A DNA stretch of 33,835 bases, taken from the IMG/VR virus record IMGVR_UViG_3300018430_002347, one strand, 5' to 3'. Of this stretch, positions 11,688 to 12,956 are shown one piece after another. The stretch is from a virus. The position numbers were made by a program, and so were the translations under genes. Under the pieces are notes generated by a model, which had not been told where the DNA came from, made no database searches, and saw nothing but the letters and a program-made list of their open reading frames with translations. How positions within the stretch are numbered: position 1 is the stretch's first letter; every line of letters begins with the position of its first letter.

Positions 11688-11776
11688 GAGTTCTCCTTTC
11701 AGATCATTGTTTTTTCGAGGTTCAGTCCTCGTGCTTCTGTCTCTCCATTTTTCGTCCGGAGATACCAAAGGGACGA

Positions 11777-11854
11777 GGCCGCCTCCCGGATTCGAACCGG
11801 GATATGCAGGGAGAAAGAACCGAAAGCCCTGACCGTTCCAACGGCTTAGACGGC
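11777..11854 (-). ncRNA. tRNA-like element with canonical acceptor, D and T arms but an aberrant anticodon arm
   Basis: Minus strand reads GCCGTCTAAGCCGTTGGAACGGTCAGGGCTTTCGGTTCTTTCTCCCTGCATATCCCGGTTCGAATCCGGGAGGCGGCC. 7-bp acceptor helix GCCGTCT/AGGCGGC with one G-U pair. D arm GCCG-TTGGAA-CGGT with a GG loop. T arm CCCGG-TTCGAAT-CCGGG with U54U55C56G57A58 and a G53-C61 pair. The only anticodon-region helix is CAGGG/CCCTG, which encloses 15 nt instead of 7. No encoded CCA. Confidence 0.35.
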
Positions 11855-11856
11855 AT

Positions 11857-11884
11857 AAAAAAAGCACCGGTTGTCCGATGCTTT
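11857..11884 (-). terminator. Rho-independent terminator after the 65-aa gene
   Basis: Minus strand AAAGCATCGG-ACAA-CCGGTGCTTT forms a 10-bp stem with one G-U pair, followed by T7. Confidence 0.6.
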
Positions 11885-11888
11885 GTCA

Positions 11889-12086
11889 TCATTTTTTACT
11901 TTTCTTCTTGACCGAAGGGGCAGGATCCGGTGGCGCCTCTTCCTGAAGGATCTGAACAAATCCCATCTCTTCCAGCTTCTTCGCCCTGGATTCTCTCACT
12001 TCGTATTCTTCTCCGGCCTTCCGAAGTTGCAGTCCACACTCTCGATCACGGAAATCACGCATGGCTCTGACTTTTACGTTTTCCAT
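11889..12086 (-). CDS. Small basic protein (65 aa)
   Basis: RBS GAAAGGAGGCAAA before the ATG. Lys-rich C-terminus PSVKKKSKK. Followed by an intrinsic terminator. Confidence 0.5.
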   Translation of the reverse strand: MENVKVRAMRDFRDRECGLQLRKAGEEYEVRESRAKKLEEMGFVQILQEEAPPDPAPSVKKKSKK

Positions 12087-12194
12087 TTTTGCCTCCTTTC
12101 AGGGTGCATCAGCCTTTGCCGTCTATGCAAGATCTGACTGCGCCGACAAATAGACCGGCGGCATCTGCCTGCCCATGATGTACAGGTAGACCCG

Positions 12195-12353
12195 TCAGTC
12201 CTTGTTAATAAGTTCCAGTTCCTCATCCGTCAACTCCCAGACAGTCTCGACTTCCTGGCTTCCGTCCTGCCGGTTGGCGATCGTGGCCGGGAGATCGAAG
12301 CAGCCTTCAGCTGTATAAGTGGCATTCGAGTATTCTGTTCTGATGGGCTTCAT
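12195..12353 (-). CDS. Small acidic protein (52 aa; start revised)
   Basis: Internal ATG 12353..12351 with RBS GAAAGGAGGAAGC. Product MKPIRTEYSNATYTAEG...ELTDEELELINKD. Confidence 0.5.
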   Translation of the reverse strand: MKPIRTEYSNATYTAEGCFDLPATIANRQDGSQEVETVWELTDEELELINKD

Positions 12354-12373
12354 GCTTCCTCCTTTCAGGCATG

Positions 12374-12399
12374 AAAAAAGCACCTCCAAACGGAGATGC
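12374..12399 (-). terminator. Rho-independent terminator after the YjcQ-like gene
   Basis: Minus strand GCATCTCC-GTTT-GGAGGTGC stem followed by T6. Confidence 0.6.
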
Positions 12400-12429
12400 C
12401 TCCTGTATCAACAACATTGCAATTGTCAT

Positions 12430-12747
12430 TTATGTGATTGTGTCTATTATTCCTTTTGCCATGTTGGCGGCTTTACGCATCAGGCTGTTTTCTTCCAAAT
12501 ACTCAAGCCCTTTCAGAGTGATCTCTGGCCGCGTAAGAGCAACCCGCGGATAGCCCTGATCCATGCTGTTCCATGTCTGTGCTCCGCTGATATATCCCTC
12601 ATTGATCAACATAGCCATAATCCTGCACCACTTGGGTTCTGACAGGCCAAGCCGATCTGCTGAAAGGCTTTCTTTGTCGAATTCTTCCAGGTCCATAGAC
12701 TTTTGAAGGATCATTAATATCTTGTATATGATTCGAAAATCCTGCAT
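12430..12747 (-). CDS. YjcQ-family phage protein (105 aa)
   Basis: Sequence ...LSEPKWCRIMAMLINEGYISG...TLKGLEYLEENS resembles the YjcQ family (winged-helix-like) found in Firmicutes prophages. Confidence 0.55.
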   Translation of the reverse strand: MQDFRIIYKILMILQKSMDLEEFDKESLSADRLGLSEPKWCRIMAMLINEGYISGAQTWNSMDQGYPRVALTRPEITLKGLEYLEENSLMRKAANMAKGIIDTIT

Positions 12748-12770
12748 CTCTGCCTTCTTTCGGACATAAG

Positions 12771-12800
12771 AAAACCACCCGATCCGCTGGGGAGGGGTGG
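12771..12800 (-). terminator. Terminator-like hairpin plus T-tract directly after the 51-aa ORF
   Basis: Minus strand CCACCCCTCCCCAGCGGATCGGGTGG followed by TTTT. The hairpin begins 1 nt after the TAG of the 51-aa ORF. Confidence 0.5.
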
Positions 12801-12956
12801 CTATGAATAATACTCTTTCATGATTCTGTCAATTTCCGCTTCTGTATCTGCTTGCTCTTCTTCTGTCGGCGGTCTGAAATCATTATCAGGAACATGAACG
12901 AAAACCAGTACCTCGTCAGATCGGTCGTTCCAGTATTCAATTTCTTCTTTCGTCAT
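12801..12956 (-). CDS. Small acidic protein (51 aa) coupled to the MuF gene stop
   Basis: ATG 12956..12954 overlaps the MuF gene TGA (ATGA overlap). Translation MTKEEIEYWNDRSDEVLVFVHVPDNDFRPPTEEEQADTEAEIDRIMKEYYS. Followed immediately by a hairpin plus T4. Under the 60-aa cutoff of the supplied track. Confidence 0.45.
   Translation of the reverse strand: MTKEEIEYWNDRSDEVLVFVHVPDNDFRPPTEEEQADTEAEIDRIMKEYYS

Follow-up and report, generated by a model that had tools for sequence, protein, structure and literature searches.

The interval between the MuF and scaffold genes

We analyzed a viral sequence of 33,835 nucleotides (nt), IMG/VR record IMGVR_UViG_3300018430_002347 (this whole stretch is hereafter the window), with respect to the interval at positions 11,688 to 12,956 in its head gene module, which separates the gene for a MuF polymorphic toxin with an ADP-ribosyltransferase (ART) domain from the scaffold gene. 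Four small open reading frames (ORFs) of 51, 105, 52, and 65 aa (p51, a YjcQ-family gene, p52, and p65), all on the minus strand, lie in this interval, together with three hairpins followed by U-tracts (T1 to T3), a tRNA-like structure (TLS), and a structured leader of the scaffold gene, all likewise on the minus strand. The sizes and charges of the small genes and the placement of the hairpins and the TLS agree with a preliminary description of this DNA, which had missed both the leader and the inability of the tRNA-like element to decode.

The comparison set was built from a scaffold protein search, which gave 36 viral loci and 80 genome loci, and was extended with metagenome copies found via p51 and p65, with DNA pattern scans, and with two annotated phage regions, for about 150 related loci in all (numbered below with the prefix L). 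A nucleotide search of a phage collection returned no close relative. The stretch from 11681 to 12968 recurs with 100% identity in at least six independent metagenome samples, and the nearest hosts among the genome loci are metagenome-assembled genomes of rumen and gut Lachnospiraceae.

The MuF gene (12953..15331, minus strand) encodes 792 aa with matches to Pfam PF06152 (2.6e-35) and PF03496 (1.6e-18), arranged as a Phage_min_cap2 N-domain, a middle region with an HExxH motif, and a C-terminal ADP-ribosyltransferase (about 12956..13474). The ART motifs FRN, STS, and QxE can be read from the translation and the domain has Lmo0066, C3larvin, Vip2, and Tre1 as relatives in the PDB; judged from these matches, the C-terminus is a C3-like ADP-ribosyltransferase. 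The middle region (13475..14200, minus strand) carries its HExxH motif as FTHELGHH and gives a weak anthrax-lethal-factor-like Pfam match, so that MuF may have two effector domains, a metalloprotease and the ART. In three metagenome copies of a sister phage the MuF-ART gene is called as two pieces (425+402 aa in L118, 474+302 aa in L119, and 688+57 aa in L120), which may be inactivating toxin frameshifts or assembly errors.

Directly downstream lies p51 (12956..12801, minus strand), an acidic 51-aa ORF with a pI of 4.1 and the putative cognate immunity protein or partner of the ART. Its ATG overlaps the MuF TGA as ATGA, confirming the coupling described earlier, and an upstream ATG at 12962 would yield 53 aa. 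The p51 family is tiny, with only 10 homologue clusters. In L117-120 it again comes after a MuF-ART, one that is 75% identical to the MuF-ART of the window. Orphan homologues occur in degraded prophage or chromosomal contexts in L121-128, and upstream of these only the last 12 to 18 ART codons (...RIKRNNIILEVVKTWK*) are left, with stop codons further upstream. The ART stub lies approximately 50 to 60 nt upstream of the p51 homologue in L121-L128, and a truncated 42-aa YjcQ follows in L125-128.

Across the loci, ART and p51 co-occur and swap together. The MuF domain follows the portal and carries a variable C-terminal toxin domain, and the small downstream ORF co-varies with it: in L037, which keeps the MuF middle domain with another tip, the next gene is a different acidic ORF of 48 aa, the ORFs behind Paenibacillus MuF-ARTs are basic and rich in Cys, and every other toxin tip has its own overlapping small ORF.

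The second small gene encodes a YjcQ-family protein of 105 aa (12747..12430, minus strand; Pfam PF09639, E = 2.5e-26; phrog_3675; PDB 2hgc, E = 3e-4), with the Pfam match reaching 92.1 bits against a threshold of 23.3 and covering profile positions 1 to 94 of 95. A gene of this family also comes after the portal gene in Faecalibacterium phage FP_Brigit, and in Lactococcus phage Tuc2009 the YjcQ gene stands as orf35 behind those for the portal and the minor head protein (orf34) and ahead of the scaffold gene (orf36). The earlier view that YjcQ is not a core head component thus stands insofar as the gene is optional, yet by its recurrence in the slot between MuF and scaffold, as in Tuc2009, it is not random cargo either. 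The literature on YjcQ and on Lmo0066 yielded nothing useful.

The acidic p52 (12353..12195, minus strand; pI 4.1) is a clade-conserved resident of the slot whose homologues measure 77 to 96 aa; a homologue search found only seven clusters, none of them named. In the window the gene ends at a TGA (12197..12195) where the nearest homologue, L039 (85% identity), has CGA (Arg), and the 23 codons that follow stay in frame (12194..12123, minus strand), still encoding the conserved C-terminus RVYLYIMGRQMPPV... and retaining the conserved YLYIMGRQMPPV segment. The TGA is identical in at least six independent samples and stands in a weak UGA-C context; it is either a recent nonsense allele or a leaky UGA-C that is read through. 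The last ORF, p65 (12086..11889, minus strand), is basic (pI 9.2) with a Lys-rich tail and gives a marginal match to Pfam Vault (27.9 bits) and to phrog_2616; its homologue search found three clusters, again unnamed. As an optional cassette, it occurs in L003, L004, and L151 and is missing from L117.

A hypervariable slot and its proposed cassettes

Conservation within the closest clade covers the portal, the N-domain of MuF, the scaffold, and the capsid protein; from about MuF residue 360 to the scaffold leader, everything varies. Slot occupancy differs from locus to locus, with p52 found in most, YjcQ in L002 and L117-120, p65 in the three loci named above, and p51 restricted to loci with an ART domain. 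The clearest case is L151, which is 97.6% identical to the window in the portal, 92% in the MuF N-domain, 99% in the scaffold, and 97.5% in the major capsid protein. In its slot, another MuF C-terminus (of HExxH type) comes with an unrelated partner of 50 aa, a protease of SDH type, an ORF of 61 aa, and p65, and both YjcQ and p52 are missing; core genes that are 97 to 99% identical thus enclose different slot contents. We read the interval as a hypervariable accessory slot that is bounded by the conserved MuF N-domain and by the scaffold gene and is occupied by exchangeable cassettes. We give this explanation as a whole, including the control region described below, a probability of roughly 65%. 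The suggestion of a mosaic insertion of accessory genes in the preliminary description is borne out by these differences, and the small-gene cluster itself is ordinary mosaicism, with cassettes inserted between genes that are adjacent in related phages, as is characteristic of morons.

Three cassettes can be proposed. The first would consist of the ART tip of MuF, the small acidic p51 (most likely immunity), and T1; the GC content of the ART and p51 segment is 0.40, compared with 0.50 to 0.55 in the flanks. The second would be the YjcQ gene with T2, and the third the clade-conserved p52, truncated here by the CGA-to-TGA change, with the optional p65. The last 200 nt before the scaffold gene would not be cargo but the scaffold gene's own control region, made up of T3, the tRNA-shaped RNA, and the pseudoknotted leader. 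Cassette junctions follow a stereotyped pattern of hairpin, U-tract, AU(G/A)YC, a few bases, a strong Shine-Dalgarno sequence (SD) GAAAGGAGG, and the next ATG. From this pattern, the junctions appear to be cassette boundaries of the transcription-terminator type, and they probably also serve as short homologies for cassette exchange.

Terminator-type hairpins T1 to T3

T1 (hairpin 12801..12773, tail to 12766; minus strand) has the tail UUUUCUUAU and a folding energy of -15.4 kcal/mol and overlaps the p51 stop codon. T2 (12404..12376, tail to 12371; minus strand; tail UUUUUUCAU, -14.7 to -16.3 kcal/mol) lies ahead of a strong SD and the start codon of p52, and T3 (11885..11860, tail to 11855; minus strand; tail UUUUUUUAU, -13.3 to -13.6 kcal/mol) abuts the TLS. 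Refolding thus upheld all three hairpins (-13.3 to -16.3 kcal/mol), with z-scores against shuffles of 56-nt windows of -2.1 for T1, -2.4 for T2, and -3.6 for T3. Each has the form of an intrinsic terminator, namely a G+C-rich stem, a 3- to 8-nt loop, and an immediate U-tract after a stop codon, and we regard the three as predicted intrinsic terminators. A simple terminator scan caught only T3; T1 has an internal loop and the T2 stem runs into its own U-tract.

On the coding strand of the 33.8-kb window, a relaxed scan judged by eye gave about nine compact strong hairpin and U-tract sites, six of which were recovered by a strict scan. Three of the nine fall in 1.27 kb, where about 0.34 would be expected (post hoc Poisson P of about 0.005). 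The terminator density had been called unusual, and this count agrees with that, but for T3 the word overstates the case, since such a hairpin is the rule upstream of the scaffold family: 56 of 73 loci have a hairpin and U-tract, often of the form AAGCAY...RGUGCUUUU, ahead of the scaffold leader, and in 36 of them it ends at most 15 nt, typically 2 to 6 nt, from the leader. Because of this recurrence, T3 does not mark an insertion; on the comparative evidence, it is an ancestral part of the scaffold control region, a conserved 5' boundary rather than an insertion scar.

The other two hairpins are present or absent along with their cassettes. T1 is conserved after p51 in L117 and L125 and also stands after the unrelated partner ORF in L151, which makes it the right-hand edge of the toxin cassette. 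The T2 junction has a different hairpin in L117 and L002, further hairpins lie ahead of the other cassettes of L151, and relatives with a short MuF, such as L005, have T3 only.

A tRNA-like structure that cannot decode

Between T3 and the leader lies the TLS (11854..11777, minus strand), which has intact acceptor, D, and T arms and which ARAGORN calls as a tRNA of 78 nt. The call is unstable, switching between Arg-tcg, for which the anticodon stem is poor, and Glu-ttc, which requires an "intron" of 8 nt. The Rfam tRNA model (RF00005) gave no match on the window even at an E value of ≤10, the tRNA-Sec model reached 17.9 bits against a threshold of 47, and the mascRNA model gave a weak 16.6 bits over the T arm and acceptor. 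The element has the cloverleaf of acceptor, D, and T arms and lacks the 7-nt anticodon loop of a tRNA. Because the anticodon-stem loop, 15 nt in the window, spans 9 to 36 nt across the relatives, with no conserved anticodon, the TLS is, judged from these sequences, unable to decode.

The cloverleaf is nevertheless 96% paired over nine homologues, with the acceptor, D, and T stems at 94 to 100% and compensatory changes in the D stem, at the base of the anticodon stem, and in the T stem. An exact 25-nt T-arm pattern had no match in viral contigs, and a pattern for the junction between the TLS and the first leader stem (S1, below) returned only copies of known loci and chance matches in viral and metagenome contigs; because these scans gave no new loci, the diversity of the TLS stays at nine sequences. 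In other lineages the same place holds only an acceptor/T-arm half (L012, L045, and L051), a Tyr-like element (L084), or a genuine tRNA-Gln (L096, 59 bits). Of 72 leaders, 13 have a tRNA top half immediately ahead of them, compared with 13 of 3,000 random segments, an enrichment of about 40-fold (of 14 raw matches, one was a terminator read as a T arm). The 3' end of the TLS is 1 to 7 nt from S1.

Two further features of this element may be mentioned. The CU-rich variable loop of the TLS (11809..11823 in the window; also L001, L002, L005, and L039-L041) nearly always contains UCCUCC, the anti-Shine-Dalgarno core, for which the window has UCUCC. Possible pairing partners of this loop are the scaffold SD and, in the second leader stem (S2), the GGAGA strand. 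In L003 and L004, only a 5-bp mini-hairpin (GCCCG AAAA CGGGC) lies between a T3-like hairpin and S1, and it may be a collapsed acceptor-stem remnant.

A pseudoknotted leader of the GP20 class

The scaffold gene (11067..11687, minus strand) belongs to PF06810, formerly GP20 (Pfam 2.1e-40), and has its true ATG at 11687. In alignment, the 200 nt upstream of it show strong non-coding sequence conservation. A covariance model that we built from 13 sequences (R1) scores the segment 11688..11776 (minus strand) at 94.9 bits and matches 72 of 96 sources (71 related loci and the window), with one match each, always at the scaffold start.

The predicted fold, all on the minus strand, consists of S1 (11775-11771 with 11757-11753) and S2 (11762-11758 with 11746-11742), followed by P4 (11739-11736 with 11703-11700), which encloses P3 (11731-11727 with 11720-11716, loop ACUGAA) and closes beside the scaffold SD (11699-11693). 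S1, which is not part of the model, is 94% paired, and one of its pairs is U-A in 38 sequences and C-G in 30 with no mismatches. S2 and P3 covary, and all measures for S1, S2, and P3 exceed those of 500 of 500 shuffles and of all slid controls. P4 pairs four bases that come after a conserved GA with the four that immediately precede the SD; 55 of 71 distinct sequences have it, compared with 12.6±2.9 for shuffled tails and 27.6±3.1 for permuted partners. This covariation argues for an H-type pseudoknot formed by S1 and S2. An alternative pairing, CCUCGU/ACGAGG, taken from the minimum-free-energy fold was rejected, as its 5' strand is constant while the partner varies.

R1 aligns the window with Paenibacillus L056, which matches Rfam GP20-b at 39 bits, and with L115, which gives a weak GP20-a match (23.5 bits). 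The leader reaches to the ATG of the scaffold gene, a PF06810 member, and it shares helices with the GP20-a/GP20-b class, with covariation. On these grounds we read the segment 11688-11776 as a pseudoknotted leader of this class that has diverged beyond the reach of the Rfam models; at the gathering threshold, these models also miss twelve relatives with the ACUGAA loop.

The T1 and T2 junctions share UUUUYUYAUGYC and GAAAGGAG, and we considered whether they are collapsed copies of the leader. This is only weak speculation, and a full-model scan with filters off, which finds a single leader in 10 kb, counts against it.

Proposed mechanism and alternative explanations

In the mechanism that we propose, late transcripts from a promoter upstream of TerS, activated by an ArpU-like regulator, would partly read through T1 to T3, and RNase P and RNase Z would cut at the tRNA-shaped element; RNase Z is put forward besides RNase P because the TLS lacks CCA. 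Cleavage would free a scaffold-capsid mRNA with the pseudoknot at its very 5' end, where it would protect the message and set its translation, possibly with feedback by free scaffold protein. The processing by RNase P and RNase Z, the stabilization of the mRNA, the autoregulation, and the cassette exchange via junction homologies are what we infer from these features. A tentative generalization, which we hold to be possible but still somewhat improbable, is that the TLS is a tRNA-derived, non-decoding "punctuation mark" kept in this Lachnospiraceae phage clade, at which a cut by host RNase P and RNase Z would separate a low-copy packaging and toxin message from a high-copy scaffold-capsid message that starts at a protective pseudoknot, with real tRNAs or acceptor/T-arm minihelices playing the same part in other lineages.

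Several observations weigh against the combination of cassette slot and control region. No sigma-70-like promoter was predicted for YjcQ, p52, p65, or the scaffold gene, and high expression of scaffold and capsid behind three terminators is an assumption. Rfam GP20 models gave no match on the window at the gathering threshold, nor at an E value of ≤10 on a 221-nt slice, and R1 finds no leader in Tuc2009. The covariation statistics of the TLS are weak, coming from nine distinct sequences of a small clade, and p51 has no match in Pfam, PHROG, or the PDB and no homologue of known function.

Two other readings of the terminators have to be considered alongside the cassette slot. An attenuation cascade, in which stepwise read-through of partial terminators sets the ratio of upstream to downstream head proteins, had been offered in the preliminary description and would fit three canonical hairpin and U-tract elements on the coding strand within 1.2 kb without a predicted internal promoter. 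Its polarity is wrong, however: the low-copy proteins, portal and MuF, are encoded upstream, and the scaffold and capsid proteins, of which hundreds are required, are encoded downstream, so that the terminators precede the highest-copy genes. T1 and T2 also come and go with their cassettes, and short-MuF relatives such as L005 do with T3. We therefore consider attenuation improbable. Somewhat better placed, although still a minority view, is insulation of the moron type, with terminators that would stop cassette transcripts expressed in the prophage (p51 and YjcQ) from entering the structural genes, while late transcription would be antiterminated. Each cassette having its own terminator and the foreign GC of ART and p51 agree with this, and the sole sigma-70-like site (TTGACA-18-TAAAGT, 13032..13003), which L117 also retains, stands a short distance ahead of p51; immunity would, moreover, be useful in a lysogen (Jamet et al. 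2017). Yet the two hexamers fall in conserved ART codons (LIDK and KS), and this coding constraint is enough to explain their conservation; the other three small genes lack a predicted promoter, and no antiterminator was identified.

For the elements next to them, the rivals differ widely in weight. Translation of the leader region as an N-terminal extension of the scaffold protein (11688..11867, giving a 266-aa GTG ORF) is scarcely credible: the frame is open from 11867 and gene callers picked a 233-aa form in two metagenome copies, but the indels of the relatives are not multiples of three, substitutions are base-pair compensatory, and all relatives conserve a start at ATG-KKEEF behind a strong SD. 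It is very unlikely, too, that the TLS is a working tRNA for Arg or Glu aiding host decoding, or a suppressor for the p52 TGA, despite the ARAGORN call, a canonical T loop (TTCGAAT), and the genuine tRNA-Gln of L096. Its long and variable anticodon loop and the failed Rfam match speak against this, ARAGORN finds nothing in close homologues, and no UCA triplet is available to read UGA; we rejected the suppressor role for that reason and for the presence of the TLS in phages without the TGA. A serious rival, with a standing like that of insulation, is a decaying, functionless tRNA pseudogene left from a former phage tRNA gene, in keeping with the real tRNA in L096, the degenerate and indel-rich anticodon arm, and the mere mini-hairpin kept by L003 and L004. 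Against decay, the stems remain 94 to 100% paired with compensatory changes while scaffold identity drops to about 79% over the same phages, independent lineages (L012, L045, and L051) retain the acceptor/T-arm half, and the adjacency to leaders is enriched as given above. As for p51, the preliminary description had left both immunity and chaperone roles open. A chaperone or packaging adaptor for the toxin domain would suit a tiny, acidic, translationally coupled protein, given that the toxin must stay inactive or unfolded for capsid loading. Immunity is favored over this rather unlikely role because orphan p51 genes keep an ART stub; a protective gene would be retained beside a stub of 12 to 18 codons, a chaperone gene would not. 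Judged by its gene context, with the joint swapping, the low GC content, and the stubs, p51 is thus most likely an immunity protein.

Genome context

The window holds an integrase (32711-33835), a replication module, and RusA, and is that of a temperate phage or prophage; we take the source to be a temperate Lachnospiraceae siphophage of the rumen or gut whose head module holds the slot. Behind an ArpU/RinA-like late regulator (19512-19072, minus strand; phrog_36, with a weak sigma-70 region 4) stands a very strong terminator (19034-19004, -22 kcal/mol), directly upstream of TerS, and from there the minus-strand order is TerS, TerL, portal, MuF, scaffold, capsid, and tail genes. The position of this terminator suggests that late transcription must pass a terminator at its very start. 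Further downstream, a palindromic hairpin with a U-rich tail (10038..10061, both strands) lies within a 60-aa ORF (phrog_15682) after the capsid gene and may be the 3' boundary of the scaffold-capsid transcript. Before the integrase, a DUF3800-I RNA (Rfam RF02969, 51.1 bits; 32411..32534, minus strand) adjoins a DUF3800 gene (31665..32414, plus strand), with a bidirectional terminator nearby at 32419..32444.

Comparison with known systems

The locus provides a clean case from nature of cassettes exchanged between phages that are otherwise nearly identical, and its cassettes resemble the morons of lambdoid phages, reportedly described by Juhala and Hendrix in 2000, in being optional genes between otherwise adjacent genes, with their own terminator and a deviant composition. 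They differ from lambdoid morons in that no cassette promoter was found and in the stereotyped junctions of hairpin, U-tract, and SD that the cassettes have in common. Tuc2009 has YjcQ in the same slot, followed by a hairpin and UUUUCUUAUGUCCG before the scaffold gene, and differs from the window in having no toxin tip, p51, p52, p65, or TLS. The Tuc2009 segment (L149, 4816..4940) places the hairpin and UUUUCUUAUGUCCG after YjcQ, with a flank that is almost identical to that of T1 in the window; GUCC...GGAC and an A-rich segment come next, ahead of the scaffold gene, and the leader model does not score this stretch.

MuF polymorphic toxins with a downstream immunity ORF are a published pattern (Jamet et al. 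2017; PMC5576092), and because the arrangement here matches it, the pairing of ART and p51 would be an instance of this known toxin/immunity kind. The toxins described there, among them the EFV ART toxin of E. faecalis, have in common with the window a MuF N-domain after the portal, a swappable C-terminal ART, an overlapping small ORF, and a temperate Firmicutes phage as carrier. The present case differs in that the p51 family has no known domain and comprises approximately 10 clusters, with orphan copies next to toxin stubs. With this locus, the MuF toxins known from gut and rumen phages gain a putative ART/immunity pair of which orphan immunity copies exist as well.

GP20 RNA motifs rank with the most common candidates for cis-regulatory elements in phages. 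Weinberg et al. (2017) reported the GP20-a (RF02991) and GP20-b (RF03003) motifs ahead of GP20 genes, to which Fremin et al. (2023; PMC10690425) added another six csRNAs from the same kind of position. The window leader is like GP20-a and GP20-b in its position directly upstream of a PF06810 gene, in its A-rich linker, second hairpin, and closing helix beside the SD, and in its first stems, the first hairpin of GP20-a corresponding to S1 and that of GP20-b to S2. It differs in that S1 and S2 join as a pseudoknot, each Rfam model line showing just one of these two stems, and in the tRNA-shaped element between the upstream hairpin and the pseudoknot. The fusion of a GP20-class leader to a non-decoding tRNA mimic is the one part of the locus for which we found no description, in a comparison that did not extend to the csRNAs of Fremin et al., such as DNAVirus_2961 or DNAVirus_56. 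Concrete leads for the function of the motif are the pseudoknot abutting the ribosome-binding site, the usual terminator-type hairpin upstream, and the tRNA mimics wedged repeatedly between the two.

That free scaffold protein can adjust its own synthesis through the mRNA has a precedent in the post-transcriptional autoregulation of the P22 scaffolding protein (Casjens & Adams 1985 and Wyckoff & Casjens 1985, as cited in PMC5529062). P22 differs in that no RNA operator is defined, and its scaffold family is unrelated, so that autoregulation of the P22 type for GP20 leaders is a conjecture by analogy. The TLS finds its closest parallels elsewhere. The mascRNA at the 3' end of MALAT1 is a tRNA-like processing signal, and RNase P matures the C4 RNA of phages P1 and P7 and the CI RNA of P4. 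Like these RNAs, the TLS is an acceptor/T-arm mimic in a longer transcript with no decoding role, and it differs from them in lying in a bacterial phage mRNA leader, in having no sequence homology to them, and in that its cleavage is only presumed. If the punctuation proposal is true, the TLS would be the equivalent, in a virus of bacteria, of tRNA punctuation in mitochondria and of the processing of MALAT1/mascRNA.

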